Below, in pieces: positions 16,325-63,296 of a stretch of 64,000 nt of DNA. Position 1 is the stretch's first letter. Each line of letters begins with the position of its first letter. Both the position numbers and the translations under genes were made by a program. The notes under the pieces are model-generated. The model was not told the origin of the DNA. It saw nothing but the letters and a program-made list of their open reading frames with translations, and ran no database searches. Source of the stretch: Alphaproteobacteria bacterium (GTDB lineage Bacteria > Pseudomonadota > Alphaproteobacteria > RF32 > CAG-239); assembly GCA_015062305.1 (NCBI GenBank), contig SUUX01000006.1:8116-72115 (forward strand), in the 5' to 3' direction.

Positions 16325-18460
16325 CTACTTCTTACCGCTCTTCATCGGTTTTGGCGATTTATCTTTGGAATTATCAATAGCGTCAGCCAAAGGTGTTTCA
16401 AAAGTCTTAAACCCAACAGGCTTTCTTGTTCCAAATTCACGACCACAAATCTCAAGACCCAAACTTTTCAGAGCTGTTTCTATCGGAATAAACAAATCCG
16501 GAGTTTCATCATCTTTTTTGGACTTATGAGCCATTCCCACAATATTACCGTGTCTATCAATCAAGGCTCCGCCCAGAGTAACCGTTTGTACAAAAGTATC
16601 AACTATAATCTCAGCGTCTCCACTTTCTGTCCAACGATAACCAATAACTTTTCCTTCATTATCCAGATAACCTTCTCCTTCATCATCCAAATTTAACAAA
16701 CCCAAAGTCATCAAAATATCCTTATTCACTTCTGGCAATTGCAAAGACAAAGGAAGTGGAGAAAATTTTGTTGGCTCATCAAGCATCAACAAGGCCACAT
16801 TTTTACTAGGATTCACTCTCAAAGCAGCAGCTTTCATTTCTTTGCCGTTAATTGTCTTAATTTTGAAATTATTATCATTTTTAACCATCAAATCAGCTGA
16901 AGTCAAAATTAAATTATCCGCAATAATCAAGCCCGCTCCTTTGTATCCATTCATATTTTCAACAGATACTATAGATGCTCTAACTTTATACAAATTATGA
17001 GGGTTCATATCTTCATAAGGAGGATTATTCTTAATACAAAAAGAATTATCTATATTTGCAAACGAATTTTCTAATTCTCCTTTTCCAACAACCAAAGCTT
17101 CTTCATTCGTATCCAACGGCACATCCACCCAATAGTCTTCCAAGACCTTGATATTGTCGGAAACTGTCACATTTTTGACCACAGTACGACTATCCTCATC
17201 AATGGCCACCATTTGACATTCATCATCAATAGCCACAGAAGAACCTGTTCCAACAATACCAGAATCCTCCACTATCGGGGTCAAAGCAACCATATCACCA
17301 ACTGGCTCCAACACTGTTTCTACAATTTCTTCTGTTGCACAAGTACCACATGGAGCCTCTGCCACACAAGTATCACAAACAGAGGTTGCATATCCTGTTC
17401 CGCTTACACCGCCTCTTTCATCAACAAATACTGTCCTTCCTCCAGAAGCCTCAGTCACAAAAGCTTTAGAAGCTAGGGACTTTTGTCCTGGCACAATCAC
17501 CTTATCAGCCACACATTTTTGCAACAACTCCACTCCTTGCATCATTGGGGCATATTGAGCAGCAAACGTATTTTCTCCCAACGCTTTTCCTCTCACAAAA
17601 GCCCACTGCTGAGCCAACACCTCGGGTCTAATACGCTGCGACAATGTTTCATTAAAGCACTGCAACTCCGGAACTTTTGTCAAAGCATCTTCAAAAGCTC
17701 TTTCTGCCAACAAAGTTTCACCATTTGGTTCTCCTTCAGAAATCTGTCCATAGCCGGTTGTCATACCTCGACAATAAACCTCAGATTTATCTAGGCTCAT
17801 AACACGCCAAACCACAGTCATTTCAGAAGAACCGCTTCTCAGCTTCTTTTGCTTTACATTCTCCCAATCAAACTCATCACATATATTCATAAAATAATCT
17901 GTAATTTCTGCAGTCATAATATATTCAGGAATCTCAATTTTGTCTGAATCTGCATAATACGGATTTGTCTTATCCACCACCACAGGATAATAGTCATTCA
18001 TCGTTTCAAAAAACACATCAAAGAAGTGCATATCTTTTTGCATTGCTCTGCCTTCATTCAAAAAGACATTTTTGCTTTCTCTGCGGCAACCGAAAATTCT
18101 AAATCTGTAATTACCCAGCTTGGTATTATAATTTTCATATTCGCCATTTTTTCTAATTCTAAAATCAACATATTCCAGTTTCACAGGAGCAAAACTATCT
18201 CTTCTTTGATGCAAATACAAATAAGCATCTTGCTGTTCTTCATCCAAAATCAATGTCTGATAACGAGGTTTGAGAGTGTCTTGCAAATAAGAAAAACGCT
18301 TAACAGGTTTTTTCTTCATCGGCTCACACATACAATCAAACAGTCCCAGAGTCGATTCGCTACCGTCACACATACACGGAATCAGCTCAGGACTTTCTTT
18401 GCTACAAGAGCTAAGCACCAATGCAAACGCTAGGATTTTCAAACCAATATTTTTCTTCAT
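16325..18460 (-). CDS. Large Cys-rich lipoprotein with a degenerate (catalytically dead) trypsin-like/DegP-like domain
   Basis: Lipobox ...ALVLSSC. CxC/CxxC clusters (PCMCDGS..DCMCEP; SVCDTCVAEAPCGTCATEE). C-terminal S1-fold blocks LILTSADLM, NVALLML and TLGGALIDRHGNIVGM have His->D, Asp->N and Ser->L at the triad positions. Start set to the ATG at 18460 (GGGAG 7 nt upstream); the track's 18478 start is a TTG. Confidence 0.6.
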   Translation of the reverse strand: MKKNIGLKILAFALVLSSCSKESPELIPCMCDGSESTLGLFDCMCEPMKKKPVKRFSYLQDTLKPRYQTLILDEEQQDAYLYLHQRRDSFAPVKLEYVDFRIRKNGEYENYNTKLGNYRFRIFGCRRESKNVFLNEGRAMQKDMHFFDVFFETMNDYYPVVVDKTNPYYADSDKIEIPEYIMTAEITDYFMNICDEFDWENVKQKKLRSGSSEMTVVWRVMSLDKSEVYCRGMTTGYGQISEGEPNGETLLAERAFEDALTKVPELQCFNETLSQRIRPEVLAQQWAFVRGKALGENTFAAQYAPMMQGVELLQKCVADKVIVPGQKSLASKAFVTEASGGRTVFVDERGGVSGTGYATSVCDTCVAEAPCGTCATEEIVETVLEPVGDMVALTPIVEDSGIVGTGSSVAIDDECQMVAIDEDSRTVVKNVTVSDNIKVLEDYWVDVPLDTNEEALVVGKGELENSFANIDNSFCIKNNPPYEDMNPHNLYKVRASIVSVENMNGYKGAGLIIADNLILTSADLMVKNDNNFKIKTINGKEMKAAALRVNPSKNVALLMLDEPTKFSPLPLSLQLPEVNKDILMTLGLLNLDDEGEGYLDNEGKVIGYRWTESGDAEIIVDTFVQTVTLGGALIDRHGNIVGMAHKSKKDDETPDLFIPIETALKSLGLEICGREFGTRKPVGFKTFETPLADAIDNSKDKSPKPMKSGKK

Positions 18461-18474
18461 TATCATGCTCCCAT

Positions 18475-20001
18475 TCAAACTTTGCCTGGCAATGATCTTC
18501 TATAAGACAATGCCTCCGCTACATGGAGTTTAAGGACTTTTAATTCATTTTGCAAGTCCGCAATTGTTCTTGCTAACCGCAAAGTTCTATGATAAGCCCT
18601 TGCTGATAGTTTATTTTTTTCAGCAAACATCACCAATAACGACTTAGCATCATTATCCAGCTCTACAATTTCTTCCAACAAACGCCCCTTCAACCCTGCA
18701 TTGGTACATATTTTTGTCTCGCCAATTTTTCGCAATCTTTGCAACTGAATATTCCTAGCCGCTACAACCCTTTCTCTTATCTGTGCAGATGTTTCTCCCT
18801 GTTTTACATTTGCCAAATCCCACGGACTAACAGCAGGCACTTCTATTTGCATATCTATTCTATCCAATAAAGGCCCCGATATTTTTGCTTGATATTCCTG
18901 TGCACATAAAGGGGCTCTCTTGCATTCCAAAGCATGATCTCCTAAATGCCCGCACCGACAAGGATTCATAGCTGCAATCAGCTGAAAATTTGCCGGATAC
19001 GTTGTATGGGCATTAACTCTGGATATACTAACACTCCCATTTTCCAGCGGTTGTCTCAAAGCTTCTAATGTTGCTTTATTAAATTCCGGCAACTCATCCA
19101 AAAACAACACCCCATTATGAGCCAAAGAAATTTCTCCGGGTTGAGCTTTTCTTCCTCCTCCAACCAAAGCAGGTGTAGAAGCATTATGATGAGGATCCCG
19201 AAAAGGCCTATCAAAAGAAACCCTGCTATCTTTCAATTCTCCGGCAACAGAATGTATCATACTTGTATCCAAAGCCTCTTCCACAGACATCGGAGGCAAT
19301 ATCCCCGGCAATCTTGCCGCCAACATAGATTTTCCCGACCCCGGAGGCCCTATCATCAGCAAATTATGCCCTCCAGCAGCAGCCACTTCCAAAGCTTTTT
19401 TTGCACTTTCCTGCCCCTTGACATCTGCCATATCCAACAAATTTGCTTTTTCTTCTGCTCTCACAGCCTCCGGTTTGGCTAACAGACAAATACCTTTCAG
19501 ATGGTTCAGCAACTCGGTCAAATTTGAAGGAGCAACAATATTTTCAACTCCAGCCCACGCCGCTTCAGAGCCCTGTGCAGCGGGACAAATAACACCCTTT
19601 CCTCTTTTTCTTGCTTTCACAGCTGCCGGCAAAACACCATTAACTGGCAAAACAGAGCCATCAAGCCCCAATTCTCCCATCACCACATAAGCAGATAATT
19701 GTTCAGGCAAAACAACACCCATCACCGCCAACAAAGACAAAGCTATCGGTAAATCAAAATGAGACCCTTCTTTCAGCAAGTCAGCCGGAGCCAAATTAAT
19801 AACAATCCTCTTGGCGGGCAAATTCAATCCTAAAGATTGCAAAGCAGAACGAACTCTCTCCCTGCTTTCAGCAATAGCCTTATCAGGCAAACCAACGATA
19901 ATAAAATTGGGCAGACCTGCAGTCAATTGAACCTGCAAATCAACATCCAAAACTTCCAACCCATTAAACGTTATTGTATCAACCCTAGCTAGCATTCTCA
20001 C
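18475..20001 (-). CDS. comM: YifB/ComM family Mg-chelatase-like AAA+ ATPase
   Basis: N-terminal Lon-like domain, Walker A MIGPPGSGKSMLA. 508 aa. Confidence 0.9.
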   Translation of the reverse strand: MRMLARVDTITFNGLEVLDVDLQVQLTAGLPNFIIVGLPDKAIAESRERVRSALQSLGLNLPAKRIVINLAPADLLKEGSHFDLPIALSLLAVMGVVLPEQLSAYVVMGELGLDGSVLPVNGVLPAAVKARKRGKGVICPAAQGSEAAWAGVENIVAPSNLTELLNHLKGICLLAKPEAVRAEEKANLLDMADVKGQESAKKALEVAAAGGHNLLMIGPPGSGKSMLAARLPGILPPMSVEEALDTSMIHSVAGELKDSRVSFDRPFRDPHHNASTPALVGGGRKAQPGEISLAHNGVLFLDELPEFNKATLEALRQPLENGSVSISRVNAHTTYPANFQLIAAMNPCRCGHLGDHALECKRAPLCAQEYQAKISGPLLDRIDMQIEVPAVSPWDLANVKQGETSAQIRERVVAARNIQLQRLRKIGETKICTNAGLKGRLLEEIVELDNDAKSLLVMFAEKNKLSARAYHRTLRLARTIADLQNELKVLKLHVAEALSYRRSLPGKV

Positions 20002-29594: not shown

Positions 29595-30653
29595 ATGGAT
29601 TTACGTTATTATATTTCTATTTTCGGAGCTATCATCGCTTTAATCTTGTCATTAGGATTACTGGGATATTCGAATTTACGCAAAAAACAACATCCCGCCA
29701 TTTTTATAATCACCCTAAGCCTCTTAGCCTCTCTCATATATTGCTTCTTTTTTTGGGATTCACTGGATTTCATAAATAACACCTCACCATGGACACTTAT
29801 CAGTATCTTTATAGGTATAATTCCAATAATTGTTAGTCATTTGCTTAGGTTAAAAACATTTTGGCACTATTTTTTCACCATAATTCCCATTGGCTTTATA
29901 ATTTTTTTCTCTAACATCCCAACAGATATCATCCCATCTCTTCCTGCATGGGGAAACCACATCATATGCTTTTTAATATGGGCTTACATATCCCTAACTT
30001 TTCACATTATTGCACCCAAAACAACTCTAGCCTCAACAGAAACCGCCTCAACAGGCTTAGGCATATATATATTATCCCTCTTAAAAGCCATTCCTTTTAG
30101 CTTTGGCTTTATTGCTCTTATTTTTAGCGTTTCTAGCCTAGCTCTTATCATACACAACAAAAAAGCCTCAAAAATAAGCATTCCTAAAGTCGATGCCGAT
30201 TGTTTAGGTTTTATTTTAGGTGGACTTTTCTATTTATGTGCAACAGAAAACGCTTTTAGCCCTGTTCTTATTTTTATGATGCTATTTATTTGTGAAACAG
30301 GATTAGCTTTGATACTAAAACTGTCTTTTCTACCTCAATATAAAGACCTTCATAACAACACAGCCTGCTCAAAGGCAGAGCAAAAAGGCCTCTTGCCTCC
30401 AATAATAAACAACCTTTTTGCTCGCATAAACATTCTTCTTGTTCTAATGGGATGCTTTCAAGTATACGCCCCCAATCAACATTCCATTCTTCTTATCTGC
30501 TTTGCAATCACATGCTGGCAGATGTATCGCCTTATAAATTGGAATTCGTTGACCTCAAACATCAAAGAAACCAATCTTATGGTTCAGCAAGCACTCAAAA
30601 AAAATATTAACAGGCTAAAAAACAACATCAACAACAAAAACAAGGCTGACTAA
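29595..30653 (+). CDS. Polytopic membrane protein, hypothetical (352 aa)
   Basis: About 9-10 TM. No diagnostic motif recognised. Confidence 0.5.
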   Translation: MDLRYYISIFGAIIALILSLGLLGYSNLRKKQHPAIFIITLSLLASLIYCFFFWDSLDFINNTSPWTLISIFIGIIPIIVSHLLRLKTFWHYFFTIIPIGFIIFFSNIPTDIIPSLPAWGNHIICFLIWAYISLTFHIIAPKTTLASTETASTGLGIYILSLLKAIPFSFGFIALIFSVSSLALIIHNKKASKISIPKVDADCLGFILGGLFYLCATENAFSPVLIFMMLFICETGLALILKLSFLPQYKDLHNNTACSKAEQKGLLPPIINNLFARINILLVLMGCFQVYAPNQHSILLICFAITCWQMYRLINWNSLTSNIKETNLMVQQALKKNINRLKNNINNKNKAD

Positions 30654-32020
30654 TGAAACTACTAAACTACTTAAAAAACATATTTCTTCAGCCTCGGACA
30701 ACATCTCCCGAAGAATTAACTCCTGAAGAAGCCTTACAAATAAACTTCAAAGTTGTTGTTGTTGAGTTTGCCGATAATGTAGAAGGCAATTGCGGAGAAA
30801 TAATCACAGCAAAACTACAGTCCTGTGAAGGTCTTTCTGTATCATATTTCAACCAACCTTTTGACAAAAGCTTCTTAAATTTAGAAAGCAGAACTCTTTT
30901 TGACTTAATTGATAAAGGTCAAACAATTTTAGATCGCACCGGCGCAGATGTTCTAGTATGGGGATGCCGAGAAGAAAATAAAATAAGACTAAACTTTCAA
31001 AATCCCCTTCAATATGAAACCGACGGAGATTGCTTCATATCGTTACTTGACAGTCTCTATTTACCAGCAGATATTTTCAAGAATTATGGAGCTTCTTTTC
31101 CAGCTCCTCTCACAAATTTATTATATGGAGCCATCATAAGTGCTCTTAATTTAGAAAACAAAACTCAAAAAATTCAAAAAAAATATTTACTCAAAAAAAT
31201 TATTGCTCGATTATCTGCAGATAATTCAGCAAAAAATCTTTCCGTAGATTATATTCCTTTTGTCATGAATTTTCTTAGTATCATCTATCTAAGTTACTGC
31301 GCCAAATCCAACGAAGACAAAGATTTTAAGATTGTACACAACCTGCTAGATACAGCCCTAAAACACCAAGACCTTATACAAAACCCCATTCATTTAGGTT
31401 GCATATATTACCACCTTGGTCAGTTATATGATGCCACAGCAGAACATTTAACCAAAAGGCCAACAAGCTCATATCGCAACTCCATAAACAGCTACCGCCT
31501 TGCTCAAAAATATCTCGGCAAATATACATATCCTTACGATTATGGATTAATTTCTTTCAAGCTCTCCAACCTTTTCTATAACTATTGGAAACAAAAAGAA
31601 GACCTCTCATCTCTACGCGATTCCGTATTTTATATGAGAGAAGCAGAAAAAATATTCACCTACGCTCTCTTTCCAGAATTTTGGGCTCAGATAGAAGGAA
31701 GGTTAGGATACCTTTTATCCCTCCTCAGCAACATCACCGACAATAATGAAATTGCAGAACTATCCATTGCTGCATACAAAAACCAACAAAAAATCATCAC
31801 CGAAAAGAGAGACCCCCTCCTCTGGGCTAGAATTCAAGAAAAAATTGGAGAAACCTATTTTCGTTTAGGAAAAAAAGAATCAGACAAAGATTCTCTTGAA
31901 GAAGCCTTAGAATATTTTCATGATGCCTTGTATATCTTCGAAAATATGAATCTTGAAAATGACAGCCAAAGGATATCTTCTTCAATATCAAAAACCAATA
32001 ATGTTATTAGTTATCAATAA
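30653..32020 (+). CDS. Hypothetical protein (455 aa), helical/TPR-like C-terminal half
   Basis: ATGA start-stop overlap with the upstream gene. No signal peptide. Confidence 0.5.
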   Translation: MKLLNYLKNIFLQPRTTSPEELTPEEALQINFKVVVVEFADNVEGNCGEIITAKLQSCEGLSVSYFNQPFDKSFLNLESRTLFDLIDKGQTILDRTGADVLVWGCREENKIRLNFQNPLQYETDGDCFISLLDSLYLPADIFKNYGASFPAPLTNLLYGAIISALNLENKTQKIQKKYLLKKIIARLSADNSAKNLSVDYIPFVMNFLSIIYLSYCAKSNEDKDFKIVHNLLDTALKHQDLIQNPIHLGCIYYHLGQLYDATAEHLTKRPTSSYRNSINSYRLAQKYLGKYTYPYDYGLISFKLSNLFYNYWKQKEDLSSLRDSVFYMREAEKIFTYALFPEFWAQIEGRLGYLLSLLSNITDNNEIAELSIAAYKNQQKIITEKRDPLLWARIQEKIGETYFRLGKKESDKDSLEEALEYFHDALYIFENMNLENDSQRISSSISKTNNVISYQ

Positions 32021-40833: not shown

Positions 40834-42870
40834 ATGAAAACTAACGACCTGTCTTCGGACATCGCACCGGCAAAACTATTGCCTAAAGATTTTAACAAAA
40901 AAAAGTTCAACATTTCTTATGCTGTAACCACAGACCCATATCTTCAAGAAATTCAAAATCTTTCCAGATCACAATGCATGGGCAAAAAAGTTTGGCAACC
41001 AATCTCTCAAATAAAAGGCTGGATGGTCTCTGCTGAAACCGCCACTTTCATGAAATGGGGTGGCTTAGGCATGATAGCTACCGAATTACCAGAAGCCTTC
41101 AACAAATGTTTTGCTGATAAAGGAGAAAAACTCACTGTTGTGACCCCTATCTATATTGGCAACACCGGCAAAAAAAAGGCCGAGATTAAAGACAACGTCT
41201 ATTTGGGAGCAGAACACAAAAGCGTCAATCTAACCAAGATCAAGACCATAGATATCCCTTTTGTTGGAGACAAGCAGGCTCTAGTCAAACACAAAGTAGA
41301 TGTCTACACTGGCAGTTTTAATGATACCGACTACATATTCCTCAGCAGCGACCGTTTTTTCAATATAGACCCTCATCCGGAAAACCCCACTGCTCAAGAT
41401 GGTTGCTATATCATGAACAAGCACGGCATCAACGAGGTTGAGCGCTTTGCTTTTTTCTCCAAAGCCGTATATGTTCTCATAAAAACCATTTTTGAAGACA
41501 AAATTCCCGAGCTTTCAGCTCCCAACATTATTATTGCCAACGACTGGCACAGCGGAGCTCTTTCTGGACTACTCAAATATCTTACTGTTGCTCAAACTCG
41601 CAGCAAAGAGATGTCATCAGAGCTAGCCCGCAAGCTAAAAACATTGCCTGTTGTCCACATTGCGCACCATCTAGGTTACCAGGGTTGGGACTATGACAAC
41701 ACAGCCAAAATACTCAACTCTTTGTATGGACACAATTCAACTTTGGTTCTCAAAAACGCCAAATCCATCAAAAACAGCAACCCCCGTGCCACCAACACTC
41801 TAATTGTTCACGATTGCTACAACCAATCTTCTTGCAATTTTCATTTGGCAGATAGGGTTGTTACTGTTTCTCAAAATTATCTGGAAGAAGTATCCAAAGA
41901 ACTGGAATTTGGCCTAGATTTCAGAGACATCTTAAAAATCCGCAAAGACCATCGTAATTTCTTTGGCATCGTAAATGGTTATGACAAAAAACTCATATCT
42001 CCCAACTCTACCAAAATAGATACCGTAAACAAATATTTTGGCAACACAAATTTCAAAACCTACGATGAAAACAAATTAGAAAACAAACTCCACAACAAGC
42101 AAGAATTCATCAAACTGATTTCAAAAATTGCCACAGATAAAGACTACAAACAAAAAGTCATACCCCTTATTGGCACCTACAAATTTGAAGACATCAGCAA
42201 AGCCATAAAAGATATTTCCAAAACACCTATTGTTTGTGCCACCAGTCGTTTGGTAGAACAAAAGGGCTATGACATTGCCGCTCAGGCCATCTTAAATATA
42301 TCAAAAAGACACCTCTCTACCAAGAGAGAGCATCCTATTTTCATTTTGGGCGGAGCCGGAGACATCAACTATTTTGAGATGCTCACCAAACTAAAAGACA
42401 AAGTAATCGCTCTCAACCCCAAAGTAGCTGAGCGCATTTTTGTTTTCCACGGATACAAAGATGAATTCGCTTATGCCATCCAATTAGCATCAGATTTTTA
42501 CATGATGCCATGCCGTTTTGAGCCTTGTGGCCTCACCCAAATGGAGGCAATGGCCAAAGGAGCTCTTCCTGTTGCCATGTCAACCGGCGGTTTGGTAGAC
42601 ACCATAGAAGACGGCGTAGATGGTTTCAGAACAGATGTTTTCTTTAGCAACAATCGCCGTGTCTACGGTCCAAACCTCATAGCCCAAAGACTCAAAACAA
42701 ACGAAAACGCCTATACAGAAACCTTAGACAAAGCCCTAAACACTTTCTATCAAACTCCAAATCTCATAACTGCAATGCAAAAAAATGCCATGCACAAAGA
42801 TTTTAGCTGGGACGTAGAAAACGGCTCTGTTTACAAATATCACAATTTGTTATCTACAGGTCACTTATAA
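40834..42870 (+). CDS. GT5-family glycosyltransferase (glycogen/starch synthase GlgA-like), atypically long (678 aa)
   Basis: KWGGLGMIATELP (GlgA KTGGLGDV-like). IIANDWHSGA (HAHDWH). SRLVEQKG. RFEPCGLTQMEAMAKGALPVAMSTGGLVDTI (EPCGLTQL...RRTGGLADTV). Confidence 0.75.
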   Translation: MKTNDLSSDIAPAKLLPKDFNKKKFNISYAVTTDPYLQEIQNLSRSQCMGKKVWQPISQIKGWMVSAETATFMKWGGLGMIATELPEAFNKCFADKGEKLTVVTPIYIGNTGKKKAEIKDNVYLGAEHKSVNLTKIKTIDIPFVGDKQALVKHKVDVYTGSFNDTDYIFLSSDRFFNIDPHPENPTAQDGCYIMNKHGINEVERFAFFSKAVYVLIKTIFEDKIPELSAPNIIIANDWHSGALSGLLKYLTVAQTRSKEMSSELARKLKTLPVVHIAHHLGYQGWDYDNTAKILNSLYGHNSTLVLKNAKSIKNSNPRATNTLIVHDCYNQSSCNFHLADRVVTVSQNYLEEVSKELEFGLDFRDILKIRKDHRNFFGIVNGYDKKLISPNSTKIDTVNKYFGNTNFKTYDENKLENKLHNKQEFIKLISKIATDKDYKQKVIPLIGTYKFEDISKAIKDISKTPIVCATSRLVEQKGYDIAAQAILNISKRHLSTKREHPIFILGGAGDINYFEMLTKLKDKVIALNPKVAERIFVFHGYKDEFAYAIQLASDFYMMPCRFEPCGLTQMEAMAKGALPVAMSTGGLVDTIEDGVDGFRTDVFFSNNRRVYGPNLIAQRLKTNENAYTETLDKALNTFYQTPNLITAMQKNAMHKDFSWDVENGSVYKYHNLLSTGHL

Positions 42871-42950: not shown

Positions 42951-45020
42951 TTAAAACAATTTCAACACACCTTGAGAGGCTTGTGACGCCAGCGATAGGG
43001 CATTAATCGCCAATTGTTGACGAGTTTGCAAAGCCAGCATATTGGCAGATTCTTCATTCATATCCGCCAAAGTGAGCTTATCTGAGCCCTCGGTGAGGAT
43101 GTTTATTAGGTTTTCGGTAAAATCTTGTCTGTTCATCACAATGCTATAATTATTGCCAAGTTCTCCGGAAAATGCACGCAACTGATTTATGGCTGATGTC
43201 AGTTCTCCTATTGAGCGAGAAATATCTTCAACCGTTGCCCATTCTGTTGTGGTTAGCCCGATATTTGCGGCAGAAATATCTTTGCCTACCACATCAATAA
43301 AAGCACTGCCATCTTCATTAAATTTGATTTTCAGAGTTTCATTTTTGAGCAGGTTTACACCCTTGTATTTGGCATCATCAATCAAGTCATCATATTGATT
43401 CAAAATCTTTTGATATTGGCTGATATCATAGCCATCTGCCGGAGCCTCACCACCACCGGCATCACGGCGCAGGCTAAACGCCACCGGATTCTCACTACCT
43501 CCAACCGTGATGGTGCTAAAGGTGCCCCAATCAGAACCATCTCCAGTAAAATCCTTCATTCCGGAGATGTCTGTATAACTTGACCATTCTAAATCCCCTA
43601 AGTTTTTTAAGCTCATAATTTTGGCTGAGGAACCATCTTCAGAAAGGCTGACGATAATACCAACTGCGGTTTTGCTACCTTTATAGGTATCATAATCATT
43701 GGCACTACTATAGGTAAAATCAGAGTACATTATATCGCCGATTTTAGGAGTTGCATTACTGCCATCAGCAGATTTCGCACTACCATCGGTGAAACAATTT
43801 TCTAAAAGCTGGAAACTACGAACTGAATAGGTAGTACCTTTAGTATAGTTGTAACGACCACCGCTATCGGTAACGAGACTCCAAGAATAGCTGTTGCTTC
43901 TCTCAGAAGACGACCAAATGAAAGAAGCTAATTGCTCTGCATCTGCACCCAATTTGCCCAAAGCTGTATTTATGGTGTTGAAATGCTCTGCATCAGCTCC
44001 TGCGGTTCCAAAATATTCACTATCTGATATCTGTGTTGTATCTGTGCCATACAAGCCATCAGCTAATTCGCCAATAGATGGCAAATACCAGGTGCCTTTA
44101 CCAAAATTGGCATCTTTTTCGCTAACAACATAATAGTTATATGCCGCATCTGCCGCCGGAGTATCTGCTTCTGTTTGAGTAACCAACAATTTTGTGTTCA
44201 TCTCACCATCATAAACAACCGCTGCATCGGCATTAAACACCTTGCGTGCCAACTCTCCATTGGTAGAAATATTTTTGGCTGTATCCAATGTTATTTGTGA
44301 GTTCCCTTCAGCAACCACGCCATGCACATAGTCACCGCTGGTTTTGATTGTAATATCGCTCAAAGTAATTTCGGCACCATTGCTAGCCAAAATAGCTCCG
44401 GTTGAACCATAAATAACGCCATTTGTTGAGGTATAATCCAGCTCAATATTTGATACTTCCACACCGGTGCCAGTAAATTTGAGCAAATTGTCGCCACCAC
44501 TATAACTTATTTTATTGCCGTTACCATTTATGATAATATCACTCTCACTAATCTCCAAAGGAGCGTCTAGCACCAAATCATCGGCAAGCACCAATTTGGT
44601 TGCTCCTCCTGCTATCAAGGTTTTTATATCATCGGCACTGGCTCCGGCAGAAATAACCTCATAACCATCATCAATAAAATCTTGCAATTTGTCTTCTTTG
44701 GACAAAGAATTTCCGCTTTCATCAAGAACTTGAGTAGCTACCGCTTTGGCTTGCTCCAAAAAAGAGGTGGCGGTTTCAATAGCTGTGGTAGCGGCTTTGA
44801 TGGTCTGAATTCCTTGCCCCATAGAGTCAAGCAGGGCATCGAGGTCATTGGCTCTGTTGTTCAAAGAACGTGCCGTATAAAAAGAAGAGGGATTATCAAT
44901 GGCAGAATTAACCTTTTTGCCGGTGGATAGACGTTCTTGGGTCAAATCCATCAGACTACTGGTCTTTTGCAAGCTCAGCAAATTGCTGCGCATGCTTGCT
45001 GTCAAACTAATCTTTGCCAT
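42951..45020 (-). CDS. fliC: Flagellin-family protein with a large (about 400 aa) central beta-helix-like domain
   Basis: N-terminal D0/D1 ...QERLSTGKKVNSAIDNPSSFYTARSL... C-terminal ...MLALQTRQQLAINALSLASQASQGVLKLF. Central region has repetitive G/S/T/N-rich beta-strand-like segments. No other flagellar genes in the window. Confidence 0.8.
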   Translation of the reverse strand: MAKISLTASMRSNLLSLQKTSSLMDLTQERLSTGKKVNSAIDNPSSFYTARSLNNRANDLDALLDSMGQGIQTIKAATTAIETATSFLEQAKAVATQVLDESGNSLSKEDKLQDFIDDGYEVISAGASADDIKTLIAGGATKLVLADDLVLDAPLEISESDIIINGNGNKISYSGGDNLLKFTGTGVEVSNIELDYTSTNGVIYGSTGAILASNGAEITLSDITIKTSGDYVHGVVAEGNSQITLDTAKNISTNGELARKVFNADAAVVYDGEMNTKLLVTQTEADTPAADAAYNYYVVSEKDANFGKGTWYLPSIGELADGLYGTDTTQISDSEYFGTAGADAEHFNTINTALGKLGADAEQLASFIWSSSERSNSYSWSLVTDSGGRYNYTKGTTYSVRSFQLLENCFTDGSAKSADGSNATPKIGDIMYSDFTYSSANDYDTYKGSKTAVGIIVSLSEDGSSAKIMSLKNLGDLEWSSYTDISGMKDFTGDGSDWGTFSTITVGGSENPVAFSLRRDAGGGEAPADGYDISQYQKILNQYDDLIDDAKYKGVNLLKNETLKIKFNEDGSAFIDVVGKDISAANIGLTTTEWATVEDISRSIGELTSAINQLRAFSGELGNNYSIVMNRQDFTENLINILTEGSDKLTLADMNEESANMLALQTRQQLAINALSLASQASQGVLKLF

Positions 45021-45116
45021 CTATCTTTCTTTGAAAAAACACTAATTTCTTGTATATTACATTATATATAGTGATGAACAAACATCTTTTGAACCTCTGT
45101 GGATAAGAACCGACAC

Positions 45117-45145
45117 AAAAAAGCACTCATTTCAGAGTGCTTTTT
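45117..45145. terminator. Rho-independent terminator after hydA (bidirectional form)
   Basis: A6 GCACTC atttca GAGTGC T5. Confidence 0.6.
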
Positions 45146-45160
45146 GTGTAGTTTTATGGT

Positions 45161-46930
45161 TTATTTACCATACTTGTTACGAGCAACATAATGAGTATGC
45201 AACAAGTGATGGGCTTTTTCCCCACCAGCCTTACCCAAATATTCTTTATACAAGGTTTTTACAGACTCATTATGATGAGACAAACGATTAGCTGCTTTCA
45301 GATCTTCATTCATCAATCCTTTCGCACGCTTTTTACGAATATCATCGGTAATGCCTCTCGGTTTTGGCTGTCCAGGCAACATTACTCTTGGCTGTCCACC
45401 ACCAGAGATACAGCCTCCACGGCAAGCCATCACCTCAACAAAGTGATATGGCATTGGCTCTCCATTTGCCCTTGCTTCTCTAATTCTATTGAGAATAACC
45501 TCAATATTTCCACAACCATGAGCTACAGCTATTCTTATCTTAGTGTCATTGATTACAATTTCGGCCTCTTTAATGCCCTCTAAGCCTTCTATAGCCTTAA
45601 AATTCACTTCACCCAGCTCTTCTCCAGTAATATAGAAATAAGCTGTACGCAAAGCCGCCGTCATAACACCTCCGGTCACACCAAAGATTGTTCCAGCACC
45701 GGAATATTCTCCCAACGGACTATCTGCCTCTTCTTCTGGCAGATTTCTAAAGTCGATTCCGGCTTGTTTTATCATTCTGCAAAGTTCTCTGGTAGTCAAA
45801 GAAACATCAACATCTTGATATCCGGAAGAACTCATATCTTTGCTTCTGGTAATCTCCCATTTTTTTGCAGTACATGGCATTATAGAAACCACCCTTATCT
45901 TAGATGGATTTATTGCCATTTTCTCTGCATAATAGGTCTTAGCCAAGGCCCCAACCATAGATTGAGGAGATTTACATGTTGAGAAATTATCTATCATATC
46001 ATGATGATATTTTTCCAACATATCAACCCAAGCCGGACAACAAGACGTAAACATCGGCAAACTTTCTGGATTCTTGGTAAAACGATTTACAAACTCTGTT
46101 GCCTCTTCTATAATCGTCAAATCAGCACCAAAGTTGGTATCAAACACCTTATTAAACCCTAGTCTGCGCAATGCGGCATAAGTCTTGCCAGTCAAGTTTT
46201 TACCAAACTCATAGCCAAACTCTTCACCTATTGCCACTCTCACAGCCGGAGCAATCTGCACCACAGTAATCAGCTCTGGATCACAAAGCATATCCCATAC
46301 TTTTTGTGTCTCATCATACTCCACAATAGCCCCTGTTGGACAATGCGCTGAACATTGTCCGCATTTAATACAAGGACTATCCGCCAAAGGAATACCTCCG
46401 GCAGCAGTAATTCTTGTTGCCAAACCTCTGTTTAGATAGCTCAAAGCCCAAACATTTTGCTGGTTCTGACAAACCTCCACACAGCGGCCGCAAACCACAC
46501 ATTTAGAAGGATCAAGCACTATAGACTTTGTTGAATCATCTTTTTCCAACTTTTTAGTCAAGCTTGGCAAACGAGAAGAAGAAATCCCAAACGTATTTGA
46601 CAGGTCTTGCAGTTCACAATGCCCGGAACGAATACATGTCAAACACTCATTGGGGTGATTGCTCAAAATCAGCTCCAAAACCGTACGTCTTACTGCAACA
46701 ATTTCAGCATCTCCGGTAATCACTTCCATACCTTCGGCAACAGGTGTACAACAAGAACGCAAAATTCTGCCATTCACTTTCACAATACACATTCCGCAAC
46801 CGGCACTTGGATCAACATCTGGATGCTTACAAAGGGTCGGAATATCTATATGAGCCTTTCTTGCTGCCTCTAAAATGCTTGTTCCAGCCGGAACTTCAAC
46901 CTCAAAATTATCTATTTTTAACTTTACCAT
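45161..46930 (-). CDS. hydA: [FeFe]-hydrogenase catalytic subunit HydA (M3-type: 2Fe-2S + His-ligated 4Fe-4S + 2x[4Fe-4S] + H-cluster)
   Basis: H-cluster motifs L1 FTSCCPAW, L2 MPCTAKKWE, L3 EVMACRGGCISGGGQP. N-terminal NuoG-like CxxC..C. HPNECLTCIRSGHC. CVVCGRCVEVC and CIKCGQCSAHC. Confidence 0.9.
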   Translation of the reverse strand: MVKLKIDNFEVEVPAGTSILEAARKAHIDIPTLCKHPDVDPSAGCGMCIVKVNGRILRSCCTPVAEGMEVITGDAEIVAVRRTVLELILSNHPNECLTCIRSGHCELQDLSNTFGISSSRLPSLTKKLEKDDSTKSIVLDPSKCVVCGRCVEVCQNQQNVWALSYLNRGLATRITAAGGIPLADSPCIKCGQCSAHCPTGAIVEYDETQKVWDMLCDPELITVVQIAPAVRVAIGEEFGYEFGKNLTGKTYAALRRLGFNKVFDTNFGADLTIIEEATEFVNRFTKNPESLPMFTSCCPAWVDMLEKYHHDMIDNFSTCKSPQSMVGALAKTYYAEKMAINPSKIRVVSIMPCTAKKWEITRSKDMSSSGYQDVDVSLTTRELCRMIKQAGIDFRNLPEEEADSPLGEYSGAGTIFGVTGGVMTAALRTAYFYITGEELGEVNFKAIEGLEGIKEAEIVINDTKIRIAVAHGCGNIEVILNRIREARANGEPMPYHFVEVMACRGGCISGGGQPRVMLPGQPKPRGITDDIRKKRAKGLMNEDLKAANRLSHHNESVKTLYKEYLGKAGGEKAHHLLHTHYVARNKYGK

Positions 46931-46932
46931 GG

Positions 46933-48624
46933 TTATTTCTCCTCTCCGGCTGGTTTTGCATCTACAAGTTTATCCAAATATTCTTTTTCAAAGAACTTCA
47001 GCGTCGACAAAACAGGATTCGGTGCTGTTTGACCAAGACCGCATAATGATGCTTTTTGCATAGCCGTTGCGATTCTGCGCAAATCCATCAAATCTTGCTT
47101 TGTTCCTTTTCCTTTGTTTATTTTTTCCAGCAGCAGCAGCATTTGTTTTCCGCCAATTCTGCAAGGAGCGCACTTTCCACAAGATTCATCAACTGTAAAG
47201 TCTAAATAGAAGTTAGCGATATTAACCATGTCAGATGTATCATCCATCACTATCATACCGCCAGAACCCATAATAGAACCAACTTTCTTAAGCTCTTCAT
47301 AGCACACAGGTAAATCCATACTTTCAACTGGAATAACACCCCCAGAAGGGCCACCTGTTTGCACCGCCTTTAGCTTTTTGCCATTGGGCACTCCGCCTCC
47401 AATTTCATTTACAATTTCATTAATTGTTGTTCCCATCGGAACTTCAATCAATCCAGAGTGTTCTACTTGTCCTGTCAAAGCAAAAACTTTTGTTCCCTTA
47501 GAGGTTTCTGTTCCAAAAGAAGCAAACCAATCAGCCCCTTTAAGAATAATTTTTGCAATATTTCCTAAAGTTTCTACATTGTTCACACAAGAAGGCTTAT
47601 TCCACAATCCTTTATCTGTCGGATACGGTGGACGAGGACGAGGAGTTCCTCTTTTTCCCTCAATAGAGTGAATCAAGGCCGTTTCTTCTCCGCAAACAAA
47701 AGCACCGGCACCCAAACGAACTTCAATATTAAAATTAAAGTCTGTGCCCATAATATTGTTTCCTAGCAGTCGATTCTTTTTACAAGCCTTTATCGCCTTT
47801 TCTAGTCTCTCTACCGCCAGCGGATATTCGGCACGCACATAGAACCAACCTTGTGTAGCACCGATTGCATAAGCTGCTATCATCATTCCTTCAATCACAG
47901 AGTGAGGATCACCCTCCAAAATAGAACGATCCATATATGCTCCGGGGTCTCCTTCGTCTCCATTGCATATAATAAATTTCTCATCAACTGTTGGAACTTT
48001 TGCTGCCAATTCCCACTTCATACCGGTAGAGAAGCCTCCACCACCACGGCCTCTCAAACCAGATTTTTTAATTTCAGCCACAACATCGGCAGGCTTCATT
48101 GTCTTCAAAACTTTTTCCAGAGCCAAATACCCGCCTCTTGCAATGTATTCTTGAATATCTTCAGGATCCATATGTCCGGCATCTTTCAACACCACTTTCT
48201 CTTGTTTGGTAAAGAAAGGCAGATCCAAAGATAAAACATGGTCCTGCAAAAACGGAGGCAAAACATATTCTTCACCTGCTTGTTTTTTCAGTGCCGGAAC
48301 GACATGCTCTGTAACAACTAATCTGGCAATCAAAGGTTCAACCCTTTTATACAGAACATCTTTTTGCCCTTTAACTTCCACTCTAATCAATGGCCCTTGA
48401 GCACACAACCCCATACAGCCGGTTGCCACGATTCGAACCTGATCCTCAACACCATGTTCCACAATAGCATTTTTCAAAATATCTATGATATCATCACTTC
48501 CCGAAGACTTACAGCCTGTAGAGTGGCAACAATAAATGCTACAACGATACCTGTCTAACTCTGCATTTTTGTTCTTAGCGATTTCATGAATATCAAATCT
48601 TTTATCCAAATCCATATCAGCCAT
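46933..48624 (-). CDS. hydB: [FeFe]-hydrogenase flavoprotein subunit HydB (NuoF-like, NAD(P)H/FMN/4Fe-4S, N-terminal Trx-like 2Fe-2S)
   Basis: FMN motif GRGGGGFSTGMKW. 4Fe-4S ESCGKCAPCRIG. N-terminal CCHSTGCKSSG...GCMGLCAQGP. 563 aa. Confidence 0.85.
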   Translation of the reverse strand: MADMDLDKRFDIHEIAKNKNAELDRYRCSIYCCHSTGCKSSGSDDIIDILKNAIVEHGVEDQVRIVATGCMGLCAQGPLIRVEVKGQKDVLYKRVEPLIARLVVTEHVVPALKKQAGEEYVLPPFLQDHVLSLDLPFFTKQEKVVLKDAGHMDPEDIQEYIARGGYLALEKVLKTMKPADVVAEIKKSGLRGRGGGGFSTGMKWELAAKVPTVDEKFIICNGDEGDPGAYMDRSILEGDPHSVIEGMMIAAYAIGATQGWFYVRAEYPLAVERLEKAIKACKKNRLLGNNIMGTDFNFNIEVRLGAGAFVCGEETALIHSIEGKRGTPRPRPPYPTDKGLWNKPSCVNNVETLGNIAKIILKGADWFASFGTETSKGTKVFALTGQVEHSGLIEVPMGTTINEIVNEIGGGVPNGKKLKAVQTGGPSGGVIPVESMDLPVCYEELKKVGSIMGSGGMIVMDDTSDMVNIANFYLDFTVDESCGKCAPCRIGGKQMLLLLEKINKGKGTKQDLMDLRRIATAMQKASLCGLGQTAPNPVLSTLKFFEKEYLDKLVDAKPAGEEK

Positions 48625-48629
48625 TATGC

Positions 48630-49109
48630 TTACTCCTCTTCCTCGCTAAGTTTCTTGCGCCATTCATCCAAAATATTACGAACATCACCCGGAGTTACAC
48701 GACCATAGGTTTTGCCGTTCACCACACAAACCGGAGCCAATCCGCAGCATCCGACACATCGAACACTTTGCAAATGGAACATTCTATCCGCAGTACTTTC
48801 GCCTTCTCCGATTCCCAATTCTTTTTTAAACTCTTCTAATACTTTATCATTACCTTTTAAATAACAAGCGGTACCCGTACAAACCGAAATAACCGCTTTT
48901 CCTGGAGCATCTAGCTTAAAAAAGTTATAAAAAGTCAAAACCTCATAGATTCTAGCCAAAGGGATTCCCATTCCTTCTGCAACAGCCATTGCATCTTCCC
49001 ATGGTATAAAACCCTTCACACCTTGAATCTCATGCAAGGCCATAATCAAAGAGCCCCGCTTTTTATGCCACTTGGCTGCAGCTTGTGCCGCCAAAGAATT
49101 ATTTTCCAT
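48630..49109 (-). CDS. hydC: [FeFe]-hydrogenase 2Fe-2S subunit HydC (NuoE-like)
   Basis: VCTGTACYLKG...CVGCCGLAPV thioredoxin-like 2Fe-2S ligands. 159 aa. First gene of the hydCBA order. Confidence 0.8.
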   Translation of the reverse strand: MENNSLAAQAAAKWHKKRGSLIMALHEIQGVKGFIPWEDAMAVAEGMGIPLARIYEVLTFYNFFKLDAPGKAVISVCTGTACYLKGNDKVLEEFKKELGIGEGESTADRMFHLQSVRCVGCCGLAPVCVVNGKTYGRVTPGDVRNILDEWRKKLSEEEE

Positions 49110-49283
49110 AAGTGTCTCCTTTTATAATTATGTTTGTTCTAGCAACATCTTAGATGTAAAAATATTGGCATTCAAGAAGATTCTTTTTCCACCCCACAAT
49201 TTTAAGTTTTTTTACCTTTGCATACCAAAAATTTACATATTTTTTGTACTATCTGCAAAATTTTTGTTTCTTAATCTAATTAT

Positions 49284-50432
49284 TTGGTTATAATCATCTT
49301 TATGAAAAAATTAGATACATACATAATCAAACAAATTTTTATTGGTTTTTTGTTGGTTTGCTTTTCACTGATGTCCATCATTTGGCTCACTCAGTCGCTT
49401 CGTTTTGTAGACCTCATAACCAACAAAGGTATCTCTGTGGGTTTATTTGCAGAACTCACCTCTTTGCTCATGCCTAGAATTTTCACAATATTAGCTCCCA
49501 TATCATTATTTGCCGCAGTATTGTTCGTATACAATCGCATGCTCTCAGATAGAGAGCTTATCGTTATGAAGGCTGCCGGAATTAGCCCTTGGCAAAATGC
49601 TCGCCCTGCTGTTTTCTTCGGATGCATAATGGCTCTGTTTAATGTCTATGTCATGAATATAGGCATTCCTAAAGCAGAAAATGCTTTCAACGAATTACAA
49701 TGGCAAATAAAAAATGATGTCTCTCACCTCATGTTCAGAGAAGGAGAATTTACCTCTTTGCAAGATGGTTTGACTGTTTTTATCACTACTCATGAACCAG
49801 ATGGTTCTGTTAGTGGAATTCTCATAAACGATGAAAGGAACCCCAAAACTCGTTCTACCGTATCTGCTGAATTTGGTAGAATTGTCCATACAGACAAAGG
49901 ACCGCGGATTATCCTCGTCCACGGCAACCGTCAAGAACTTAATAGAAGCAACAATCAATTTAGTTCCATTTTATTTGATAGATATTCTGTAGATTTTGGC
50001 GCAAAAAAAAGCAAAGCCCGCAAAGAAGCTGGAGCAAGACAAAAAAATCTCAAAGAATTGCTAAGCGCAGGATCTAACCCAGACCTAACGCCAAAAGAAG
50101 CTCGTCGCTGGATTGTAGAAGGCAACAAACGCTTTACCACTCCTCTTCTTAACATACTATACTCTCTATTGGCTTGTACAGGCCTCATAATTGGCAACTT
50201 CAACCGCAGAGGCCAAACAAAAATAGTATCTATCTCTGTTGCTTCTATGGTTATAATTCAAGCCCTCGATTTAGCCTTAGGCAACTTAGCCGCTAAAAAG
50301 CTGTATTGGCTTATCGCAATGTACCTAAATATTACGATTCCCTTCATCACGTGCCTATATTTACTGCACAACTACAAGCCCGCTCTTTTCCAAAAAAAGA
50401 TTAAACCTCAAGGAGACATCGATGCAAAATAA
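49284..50432 (+). CDS. LPS export ABC permease, LptF/LptG family (immediately upstream of lptD)
   Basis: N-terminal LDTYIIKQIFIGFLLVCFSLMSIIWLTQSLRF. 6 TM. Overlaps the lptD start. Confidence 0.8.
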   Translation: MVIIIFMKKLDTYIIKQIFIGFLLVCFSLMSIIWLTQSLRFVDLITNKGISVGLFAELTSLLMPRIFTILAPISLFAAVLFVYNRMLSDRELIVMKAAGISPWQNARPAVFFGCIMALFNVYVMNIGIPKAENAFNELQWQIKNDVSHLMFREGEFTSLQDGLTVFITTHEPDGSVSGILINDERNPKTRSTVSAEFGRIVHTDKGPRIILVHGNRQELNRSNNQFSSILFDRYSVDFGAKKSKARKEAGARQKNLKELLSAGSNPDLTPKEARRWIVEGNKRFTTPLLNILYSLLACTGLIIGNFNRRGQTKIVSISVASMVIIQALDLALGNLAAKKLYWLIAMYLNITIPFITCLYLLHNYKPALFQKKIKPQGDIDAK

Positions 50433-62219: not shown

Positions 62220-63296
62220 TTATGATACTCTAAGCCTTTCAAAAATCCGCCTATCAAAAGATCTGACAGCATAATTTTTATTATTTGTAGTACTCCTATC
62301 GGCGTAAAGATGTTCCTTCTCCTGCTCTTCTTTGCTTTTTCCCTGTCTCAAGCCGTTAATAACTTCTCGCATTGTTAGCAGATTTGTAACTTGTTTTTCT
62401 TTTTTAGCCATAACAGCATGTATGCTTCCTGTAACAGGCCGATAAGTTGCCATAACCCCTTCAACTGCAGCTCCAAACTCTTCTTCGTAATACAAATTCT
62501 GCAAATAATTATTTGTCGTTGGAGATTGTTCTATAGCGGCCATTCTTGCGGCCTCCATAGCGGCCTTTTGAGCAGCTTCTTCCATTGCTTTTTCTCTTCT
62601 TTCCTGCTCATCAGATTTATTTTTTGTTTGTTCTGTTCTATCTCTCAACCTTCTTAGTTCTGACAACTTAAACTGCAAAAAGCTTAACTTATTCTGAGCC
62701 ATTTCTTTATAATATCCGCTACCACCTCTTTCTGCCGCGGCATACAAATCTATCACTAATTTCAATTCTGTTTCTCTATCACCCAAATACCCAATAAACA
62801 AATTTCGAGCAGCAATTTCCCCATCTGTTGTGCCATTTGTATTAATATCTACTTCGATTTTTCTTTGAATTTGAACCCAATCATAATATTCTGCTTTAGG
62901 ATCTTCTCCTGAATACAAATGTTGCAATGTTTCTGCCAAAACATAGCTCAAATCATAAACCGGAACCTCACTATTTCCATAAGTCGGAAGCTTTACAGGC
63001 TCTCCTTTTTTTATTTTTTCAACAAGCGCTTTACTATAGTCCTTAACTTCCTCAGGGTCTTTTCTCCTCATCTTATCTACCATATTTTCCATTCTGGACT
63101 TTTCTTCCAGAGACGCTTTTGCCTGAGGCTCAAAAGATCGATTCCTTTGCTTTTCGTACTCGTTCATCATCAACATCATTTTCTCATAATCACTAATGTC
63201 ATTAGGATTATTAGACATAAAGAATTTATCGTACGTTATATATTGTTCCCTTGTTATCATATCCCGACGTCTCCCGCCAAAATTAAACCTTTTCAA
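62220..63296 (-). CDS. Hypothetical soluble coiled-coil protein (358 aa)
   Basis: Charged, K/E/R-rich. No TM or signal peptide. No motif recognised. Confidence 0.45.
   Translation of the reverse strand: MKRFNFGGRRRDMITREQYITYDKFFMSNNPNDISDYEKMMLMMNEYEKQRNRSFEPQAKASLEEKSRMENMVDKMRRKDPEEVKDYSKALVEKIKKGEPVKLPTYGNSEVPVYDLSYVLAETLQHLYSGEDPKAEYYDWVQIQRKIEVDINTNGTTDGEIAARNLFIGYLGDRETELKLVIDLYAAAERGGSGYYKEMAQNKLSFLQFKLSELRRLRDRTEQTKNKSDEQERREKAMEEAAQKAAMEAARMAAIEQSPTTNNYLQNLYYEEEFGAAVEGVMATYRPVTGSIHAVMAKKEKQVTNLLTMREVINGLRQGKSKEEQEKEHLYADRSTTNNKNYAVRSFDRRIFERLRVS

Follow-up and report, generated by a model that had tools for sequence, protein, structure and literature searches.

The hydC-hydB-hydA operon

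We analysed a 64-kb stretch of DNA (positions 1-64000, hereafter the window) on contig SUUX01000006.1 of an uncultured gut alphaproteobacterium, and our subject is an operon on its minus strand that is predicted to encode a trimeric NAD(H)-linked [FeFe]-hydrogenase of the HydABC type, above all the flavoprotein subunit HydB. The first gene, hydC (48630-49109, minus strand, 159 aa), encodes a NuoE/HoxE-like [2Fe-2S] subunit, as indicated by its open reading frame (ORF) and the Pfam domain 2Fe-2S_thioredx (E 6.4e-47). It is followed by hydB (46933-48624, minus strand, 563 aa) for a NuoF-like flavin mononucleotide (FMN)/NAD(H) flavoprotein and by hydA (45161-46930, minus strand, 589 aa) for an M3-type [FeFe]-hydrogenase catalytic subunit, both identified through their ORFs together with Pfam and NCBIfam matches. 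According to the ORF list of the window, 5 nt separate hydC from hydB and 2 nt separate hydB from hydA. The original prediction, which was made from the letters and their ORFs, had reported a complete hydC-hydB-hydA operon here, and the reading frames, the spacing and the quoted motifs were all confirmed.

Downstream of the operon an intrinsic-terminator-like hairpin of 11 pairs with a T run (45118-45145, minus strand) lies 16 nt past the hydA stop codon, inside the 140-nt gap (45021-45160) between hydA and a flagellin gene, where the original prediction had placed a terminator. The hairpin is palindromic and the scan reports it on the plus strand; in the minus-strand reading, TTTTTTGTG comes after the stem. 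Terminator-like sites are no more numerous in the region than shuffling leads one to expect, and it is the position alone that supports a function for this one. Upstream, an AT-rich intergenic region of 174 nt (49110-49283, no strand assigned) lies between the divergent genes hydC and lptF and contains the hydC ribosome-binding site, AGGAG at 49116-49120, 6 nt ahead of the ATG. The sigma-70-like hexamers in this region are weak, with 9/12 matches at 49228-49199 (minus strand) and 49232-49261 (plus strand), which is not above chance.

The catalytic subunit HydA and the small subunit HydC

HydA matches the Pfam domains Fer2_4, NADH-G_4Fe-4S_3, Fer4, Fe_hyd_lg_C (E 1.6e-95) and Fe_hyd_SSU, and it exceeds the cut-offs of two NCBIfam models, NF040763 (788 bits, cut-off 765) and TIGR02512 (510 bits, cut-off 406). 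The former carries the name 'NADH-dependent, group A6', which we rejected as a classifier because the bifurcating HydA1 of Thermoanaerobacter kivui scores higher on the same model (852 bits). The translation contains TSCCPAW, MPCTAKKWE and EVMACRGGCISGGGQP. Judged against the patterns TSCCPxW, MPCxxKxxE and ExMACxxGCxxGGGQP for the L1, L2 and L3 motifs of the H-domain, the cysteines fall on C297/C298 in L1 (TSCCP), C353 in L2 (MPC) and C503 and C507 in L3, as in [FeFe] group A. The accessory domains comprise an N-terminal [2Fe-2S], a His-ligated [4Fe-4S] and a 2x[4Fe-4S] domain (Cys 34/45/48/60-61, 96/99/105, 144-154 and 187-197), and the C-terminus is small-subunit-like, which together is the M3 architecture.

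The best solved matches of HydA are the T. kivui (8a6t_A) and Acetobacterium woodii (7q4v_A) subunits, at E ~1e-172. In a residue-by-residue alignment with T. kivui HydA1 (8a6t_A, E 1.3e-172) the L1-L3 motifs and the accessory cysteines are all in register. The H-cluster cysteines and the HydA domains are thus sound as first described, by the Pfam profiles as well as by this alignment, with no truncation. HydC has its [2Fe-2S] ligands at C77, C82, C118 and C122, and its best solved match is the bifurcating HydC of T. kivui (8a6t_C, E 4e-38). The prediction that hydC-hydB-hydA encodes an intact trimeric NAD(H)-linked HydABC-type [FeFe]-hydrogenase, with every metal-cluster ligand of these subunits present, is confirmed by these data.

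HydB keeps a bifurcating-type core and lacks the ferredoxin-like domain

HydB shows a weak N-terminal 2Fe-2S_thioredx match (residues 27-101) followed by the Pfam domains Complex1_51K, SLBB and NADH_4Fe-4S, and its translation contains GRGGGGFSTGMKW and ESCGKCAPCR. We sought relatives of HydA in one genome per GTDB species and found them at 68-94% identity in at least 80 species; the window HydB was then compared with the HydB proteins of 80 related species, giving a set of 81 sequences. The thioredoxin-like [2Fe-2S] site at the N-terminus (C33, C38, C70 and C74) is kept in 79-80 of the 81, the remainder being gaps, and the B1 [4Fe-4S] site (C482, C485, C488 and C528) is conserved wherever the sequences cover the columns. 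The residues that Losey et al. (2020) describe as the signature of bifurcating enzymes, here A229 and M231 (A/E and M by the NADH site), F309 (by the FMN) and GGPSG at 424-428, occur in all sequences covering the positions (80-81 of the 81). Several features of the Bfu family are also in place: the A, B and C subunits are co-encoded, HydC has the C1 [2Fe-2S] cluster, and HydB has FMN, B1 and the N-terminal [2Fe-2S].

What HydB does not have is the C-terminal 2x[4Fe-4S] ferredoxin-like (B3/B4) domain that characterises the Bfu family. Its best solved matches are the B subunits of Acetomicrobium mobile (7t2r_B) and A. woodii (7q4v_B), at E ~1e-197 (best 5e-197), and the alignments stop at residue 529 of 597 in the former and 536 of 599 in the latter. 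The solved bifurcating B subunits run ~60-70 residues past the end of the window HydB at residue 563. In the alignment its final 'DAKPAG' stands opposite 'DKKCPAG', with which the ferredoxin-like C-terminal domain of A. woodii opens. The 80 homologues run at most 18 residues past the aligned core, and a CxxCxxCxxxC tail occurs in none of them.

The Zn (or extra-cluster) hinge of the Bfu family is missing as well. A hinge of '3 Cys + 1 His' has been reported for Thermotoga maritima and T. kivui (PMC9499530), and from this statement and from conservation we infer its ligand columns. In five solved Bfu B subunits these are a Cys after GGPSGG, a Cys in 'MDExxCMVD' and a His in 'EYxAH', and a fourth position, the Cys in 'KKCPAG', is seen in A. 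woodii HydB. The second position is Cys in 107 of 150 representatives. The window HydB has V430, D465 and K552 at the first three positions and no fourth Cys, and none of the 81 sequences has a hinge Cys or His: the first three columns hold V/L, D/N/S and K/R, and nowhere is there a fourth Cys.

This combination is rare outside the clade. A search of 1.84 billion representative proteins with HydB found one close relative, P0121 (565 aa, 64% identity), which has the same features and is encoded in a hydCBA operon of different gene context on ENA metagenome contigs. Beyond it the identity is at most 54%, except for P0126, a partial match at 63% from a highly fragmented NCBI assembly. Most of these matches are 600-1000 aa long, and many of them have two CxxCxxCxxxC motifs past the core. 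Outside the clade, bifurcating-type residues without a hinge and without the C-terminal domain were seen in P0121, P0126 and one fragment only.

Some of the variants deserve mention by themselves. P0126 (locus L090, 6001-7971) is a HydB of the truncated type with a 219-aa N-terminal extension of thioredoxin-like repeats without cysteines. In P0122 (738 aa) the first hinge position holds V, and the ferredoxin-like domain is replaced by a NuoF-type C-terminal [4Fe-4S] helical domain that is duplicated. These two proteins suggest that the architecture of the B subunit is more varied than a split into bifurcating and non-bifurcating forms. Within the clade the most divergent HydB (locus L069, 8279-9910, 63% identity) ends in a Cys-rich C-terminal tail, 'KECCGGCACSCNKNEAAK', which may form a small metal site in place of the lost domain. 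MBE6448495.1 (560 aa), which is encoded on an 82,976-bp contig and falls into one 90%-identity cluster with the window HydB, is named 'NADH-quinone oxidoreductase subunit L' by NCBI, a misnomer for a NuoF/HydB-type flavoprotein.

Predicted function of the hydrogenase

Our data favour, with moderate confidence, a ferredoxin-independent NAD(H)-linked [FeFe]-hydrogenase that would be derived from a bifurcating ancestor through the loss of its ferredoxin branch. Descent from bifurcating enzymes (Bfu, group A3) is suggested by the best solved matches of all three subunits, by the Losey residues and by the alignment of 'DAKPAG'. Since HydB has neither B3/B4 nor the Zn hinge, which form the sole ferredoxin branch with experimental support, the enzyme would most likely work without ferredoxin, and the label 'bifurcating-type' in the original prediction becomes doubtful. 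Bound ferredoxin has been observed to lie between the C subunit and B3/B4 (PMC12018979), and a T. kivui HydB with P565-G630 deleted showed low bifurcation activity (PMC10021017). The window HydB ends near the equivalent of T. kivui residue 570 and resembles this engineered protein, a poor bifurcator. Schut et al. define the Bfu family by invariant clusters in the B and C subunits that are lacking in non-bifurcating homologues.

Under this reading HydABC would be a cytoplasmic heterotrimer. It is known for the family that the FMN in HydB accepts a hydride from NADH and that B1 links it to the HydA chain and the H-cluster. By analogy with the solved homologues, electrons would pass reversibly from NADH to FMN, B1, the HydA clusters ([2Fe-2S], then the [4Fe-4S] clusters) and the H-cluster, where H2 forms. 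After the clade HydB had lost its 2x[4Fe-4S] domain and the four Zn-hinge ligands, the enzyme would equilibrate NADH/NAD+ with H2, with no ferredoxin involved. It would get rid of NADH in the form of H2 while hydrogen consumers hold H2 low, and use H2 to reduce NAD+ at high H2 levels. If NADH is the sole donor, H2 can form only at tens of Pa, so the enzyme may need hydrogen consumers or may run as an uptake hydrogenase; the NAD+-reducing mode may prevail at high gut H2.

Several points weigh against this reading. By our estimate, gut H2 would often exceed the limit of ~70 Pa for H2 formation driven by NADH alone. The flavobicluster of FMN, B1 and C1, the proposed site of bifurcation, is intact and invariant together with the N-terminal [2Fe-2S], and the bifurcating residue signature is present in every covering sequence. 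Losey et al. rate this signature as more diagnostic than cluster content, and by their rule HydB is classed as bifurcating. Reduced ferredoxin should be available, as pyruvate:ferredoxin oxidoreductase (PFOR) and a small ferredoxin are reported from related genomes (PMC4967309). Ferredoxin coupling could take another route, or the missing domain could act in trans.

The same observations feed the alternative of a canonical or near-canonical confurcating HydABC, in which NADH and PFOR-reduced ferredoxin jointly drive H2 formation. Ferredoxin would then dock at the [2Fe-2S] of HydC or of the HydB N-terminus or at the surface clusters of HydA, or a separate small ferredoxin would replace the domain. 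All of the nearest solved relatives bifurcate, a direct route from [2Fe-2S] to ferredoxin was left open by Feng et al. beside the one via B3/B4, and joint drive by two donors would suit high gut H2. We nevertheless consider this alternative rather unlikely: the B3/B4 domain and the Zn hinge are missing in 80/80 species, the deletion of the same domain in T. kivui impairs bifurcation, the only ferredoxin site seen experimentally requires B3/B4, the definition of Schut et al. demands B-subunit clusters that this HydB does not have, and no small ferredoxin gene adjoins the operon in any of the loci.

The ferredoxin-independent reading can be compared with known systems. The bifurcating HydABC enzymes of T. 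kivui (8a6t), A. woodii (7q4v) and T. maritima (7p5h) have the same subunits, the same gene order and the same M3 architecture of HydA, and they share the HydC [2Fe-2S], the HydB FMN, B1 and N-terminal [2Fe-2S] and the residues PGA-x-M, GAGAF and GGPSG. They differ in that the window HydB is ~60-70 residues shorter, has no B3/B4 and has all four Zn-hinge ligands replaced or missing. In Hyd1ABC of Syntrophomonas wolfei (PMC5626996) and HydAB of Syntrophus aciditrophicus (PMC7311640) the B subunit is likewise without C-terminal clusters, and the S. wolfei enzyme forms H2 from NADH and reduces NAD+ with H2 independently of ferredoxin (PMC5626996). The predicted function of the window enzyme is the same, a reversible NADH:H+ oxidoreduction without ferredoxin. 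However, S. wolfei HydB1 has 407 aa and no N-terminal [2Fe-2S] site, whereas the window HydB has 563 aa and keeps it, and the non-bifurcating residue pattern (T/S, K/S/A, Y, no GGPSG) does not occur in the window HydB. The window protein thus does not belong to the S. wolfei lineage though it may work alike, and its C-terminal clusters were probably lost independently, on a different branch of the NuoF/HydB tree. The FdsB subunits of Rhodobacter capsulatus (6tg9_B) and Cupriavidus necator (6vw7_B) have the same N-terminal domain and NuoF core and no C-terminal ferredoxin-like domain, and their enzymes are non-bifurcating. They differ in having a molybdopterin catalytic partner in place of the H-cluster, and they match the window HydB at E 1e-111 to 1e-114 as compared with 1e-197.

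Inheritance of the operon

The operon is a clade-wide, vertically inherited trait of uncultured gut Alphaproteobacteria, as synteny, codon usage and co-divergence indicate. We found hydC-hydB-hydA in 80/80 of the related loci fetched. The divergent lptF/hydC arrangement, with lptF directly upstream within less than 400 nt, is conserved in 42 of these species, and lptF is upstream with an insert of 1.2-1.9 kb in nine more. The operon stands in another context in 24 loci, and in five the flank is too short to judge. Loci whose HydA is only 71-73% identical still retain the lptF/hydC junction. HydA, HydB and HydC identities correlate with those of lptF and lptD (r ~0.75-0.86). The mean identity of the Hyd proteins is 83-87%, as compared with 64-69% for lptF, lptD and rsmA, and this higher conservation relative to housekeeping neighbours points to strong purifying selection.

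The inserts between lptF and hydC contain an ORF of 317-510 aa that is rich in K/E/R and of low complexity (L018, L022, L023, L026-L030 and L032; e.g. L026 6102-7634). We considered a maturase or a regulator for it and rejected both, as the ORF is of low complexity and no domain could be recognised by eye.

In composition the hyd genes are native. Their GC content at third codon positions (GC3) is 0.33-0.36, as compared with 0.319 +/- 0.041 for the other genes, and their relative synonymous codon usage (RSCU) correlates at 0.86 with the remaining window, which is typical of minus-strand genes. Their GC3 skew of +0.33 to +0.39 has the native sign, the other minus-strand genes except flagellin having +0.5 to +0.8. 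The flagellin gene, not the hyd operon, is the compositional and syntenic outlier.

The operon had been said to look inserted, and the terminator and the AT-rich divergent region on its two sides, the slightly higher GC of the hyd genes (0.41-0.42 vs 0.375 for the window) and the patchy occurrence of [FeFe]-hydrogenases across Alphaproteobacteria (PMC4967309, PMC6993867) would be in line with its having recently entered the reduced genome of an obligate alphaproteobacterial symbiont by horizontal insertion. This does not hold against an operon found in every related species, with lptF upstream in 51, native GC3, codon usage and skew sign, and identities that follow those of lptF and lptD. We regard such an insertion as extremely improbable.

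A chimeric contig that joins a Firmicutes-type operon to alphaproteobacterial genes can be given practically no weight. The nearest characterised homologues do come from Firmicutes and Synergistetes, and a chimeric assembly had been named beforehand as something that would undo the prediction. However, an identical HydA with the same gene order is found on 15 contigs from at least six samples (JGI, ENA, NCBI), the shared order being rsmA-surA-lptD-lptF / hydCBA / flagellin / glgA-like / grpE / rph / rdgB / addB / addA. Since these contigs were assembled independently, a chimera is excluded; the same junctions also recur in dozens of species, and the strand-specific GC3 skew is continuous over them.

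Taken with the HydB data, we give about even credence to the proposal that this clade and a few relatives (P0121, P0126) carry a naturally truncated hydrogenase of the Bfu type, which kept the bifurcating core, shed B3/B4 and the Zn hinge, and has been held under purifying selection over at least 80 species. A description of such a truncated enzyme was not found in the literature as far as checked, and for the hydrogenase of the RF32 clade we found only a ruminant catalogue of metagenome-assembled genomes (MAGs).

Maturases

The maturases HydE, HydF and HydG would have to be encoded elsewhere in the genome. In agreement with the original prediction, profile scans found no hydE, hydF or hydG in the 64-kb window, where none of the scanned P-loop ORFs is HydF-like and the sole radical-SAM gene is hemW (13281-14390; TIGR00539, 302 bits). 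None of the three genes occurs within +/-10 kb of the operon in the 80 species. A scan for an N-terminal CX3CX2C motif in ORFs of at least 300 aa across 89 loci gave four matches, none of which is hydE or hydG by size and position; three have CAMGCKFC and one has CRSKCPYC, and they look RlmN-like and HemW-like.

The lack of maturase genes near the operon would fit an inactive relic, or a non-catalytic, sensory or Nar1-like homologue. We consider this very unlikely, as the H-cluster and accessory ligands are all intact, the Hyd proteins are more conserved than their housekeeping neighbours, and the genomes of CAG:239, CAG:260 and CAG:977 are reported to encode HydE, HydF and HydG at other sites (PMC4967309).

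The host and the neighbouring genes

The host is an AT-rich alphaproteobacterium (~37.5% GC), as first proposed. This follows from the labels of its relatives and from two equivalogs, AddA (1147 bits on TIGR02784, addA_alphas) and AddB (855 bits on TIGR02786, addB_alphas), which are both over the cut-off. The HydA sequence itself occurs in NCBI, without any difference, as a protein of a MAG under the label Alphaproteobacteria bacterium, and the nearest GTDB species representative has a HydA 94% identical. Nearly all relatives are uncultured MAGs from the gut or rumen of human, mouse, chicken, rabbit, deer, sheep, yak and buffalo. Among their labels are Alphaproteobacteria bacterium, uncultured Azospirillum sp., Azospirillum sp. 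51_20, Proteobacteria bacterium CAG:495 and Candidatus Scatocola faecigallinarum, the last of which is placed in Rhodospirillales by the NCBI taxonomy, and a few are labelled just 'Proteobacteria' or 'proteobacterium'. Two MAGs labelled Lactobacillaceae bacterium / Lactobacillus sp. (L048, L052) carry the same hydCBA operon with a HydA of 74-76% identity, and they are probably mis-binned or mislabelled.

A reduced genome like that of an obligate symbiont had been suggested, and our data speak against it: the MAGs of the relatives come from gut, rumen and faeces and include contigs of up to 615 kb, and the window also encodes flagellin, lipopolysaccharide (LPS) export, AmpG, a glycogen-synthase-like protein and GrpE.

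The position of the operon was described as between lptFG/lptD and flagellin. The gene lptF (49284-50432, plus strand; TIGR04407, 238 bits) is indeed adjacent and joins an lptF-lptD-surA-rsmA string, but lptG (5808-6914, minus strand; TIGR04408, 250 bits) lies ~43 kb away. The two genes are usually neighbours.

On the other side, the flagellin gene (42951-45020, minus strand) encodes 689 aa with a very large central region. Pfam matches just the N- and C-terminal helical domains, apart from a weak Lcl_C match in the middle of the protein. Its GC3 skew is -0.12, as compared with +0.5 to +0.8 in the minus-strand genes outside the hyd operon. The gene is missing at this position in almost all relatives, where hydA runs straight into the glgA-like gene, and locus L088 has a 100% identical HydA, yet a different flagellin of 590 aa and different downstream genes. 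The flagellin locus looks like a hot spot of recombination or replacement.

The glycogen-synthase-like protein (40834-42870, plus strand) has 678 aa and is ~200 aa longer than the GlgA models; its NCBIfam matches are all below the cut-off, and the strongest cover mainly residues 460-672. Four further ORFs, at 16325-18478 (minus strand), 29595-30653 (plus), 30653-32020 (plus) and 62220-63296 (minus), encode proteins of 717, 352, 455 and 358 aa for which no NCBIfam match was found at thresholds of E 1e-15 or 1e-30.

The strand asymmetry of the window is unusually strong. Every 2-kb segment of positions 1-64000 has a GC skew between -0.07 and -0.39. Genes on the minus strand have a GC3 skew of about +0.5 to +0.8 and those on the plus strand one of about -0.3 to -0.65. 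Some two thirds of the genes lie on the G-rich strand, and the 64 kb contain no skew switch that would mark an origin or a terminus.

Earlier reports and implications

The operon had been thought rare and novel, which is at odds with its presence throughout the clade and with the publication of the same type in 2016 in the context of mitochondrial origins. Degli Esposti et al. describe a gene for a long-form [FeFe]-hydrogenase beside NuoE and NuoF homologues in the human-gut bacteria Azospirillum sp. CAG:239 and Acetobacter sp. CAG:977, with PFOR, a short ferredoxin and HydE/F/G elsewhere in those genomes, and argue for an alphaproteobacterial ancestry of eukaryotic hydrogenases (PMC4967309). 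A re-analysis by Lewis et al. in 2020 found no topological support for that ancestry, the alphaproteobacterial sequences being scattered among other bacteria (PMC6993867).

The hydrogenase of CAG:239 (CDB53275-CDB53277) and CAG:977 is the same three-gene unit from the same gut clade as the window, and the window species is a different one. The loci of uncultured Azospirillum sp., Azospirillum sp. 51_20 and Proteobacteria bacterium CAG:495 have a HydA 81-88% identical to that of the window and the same truncated HydB. In the passages of the 2016 paper that were consulted, the partner is treated simply as NuoF-like and we found no mention of the missing ferredoxin-like domain.

With the trait being clade-wide and vertically inherited, the framing as an inserted bifurcating hydrogenase that bears on the origin of hydrogenosomes matters little. 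What matters is that two published rule sets conflict on this HydB, which the residue signature would make bifurcating and the cluster content non-bifurcating. Genome surveys in which every HydABC operon is called 'group A3 bifurcating' would get the H2/NADH economics of a widespread lineage of the gut and rumen wrong. The window HydB is a natural counterpart of the engineered C-terminal deletion that probes the mechanism of bifurcation. If our reading is true, the truncated Bfu type represents an independent route from a bifurcating to an NADH-only enzyme, or else ferredoxin coupling by a new route; either way, it would amount to a natural experiment on the parts of HydABC that bifurcation requires.

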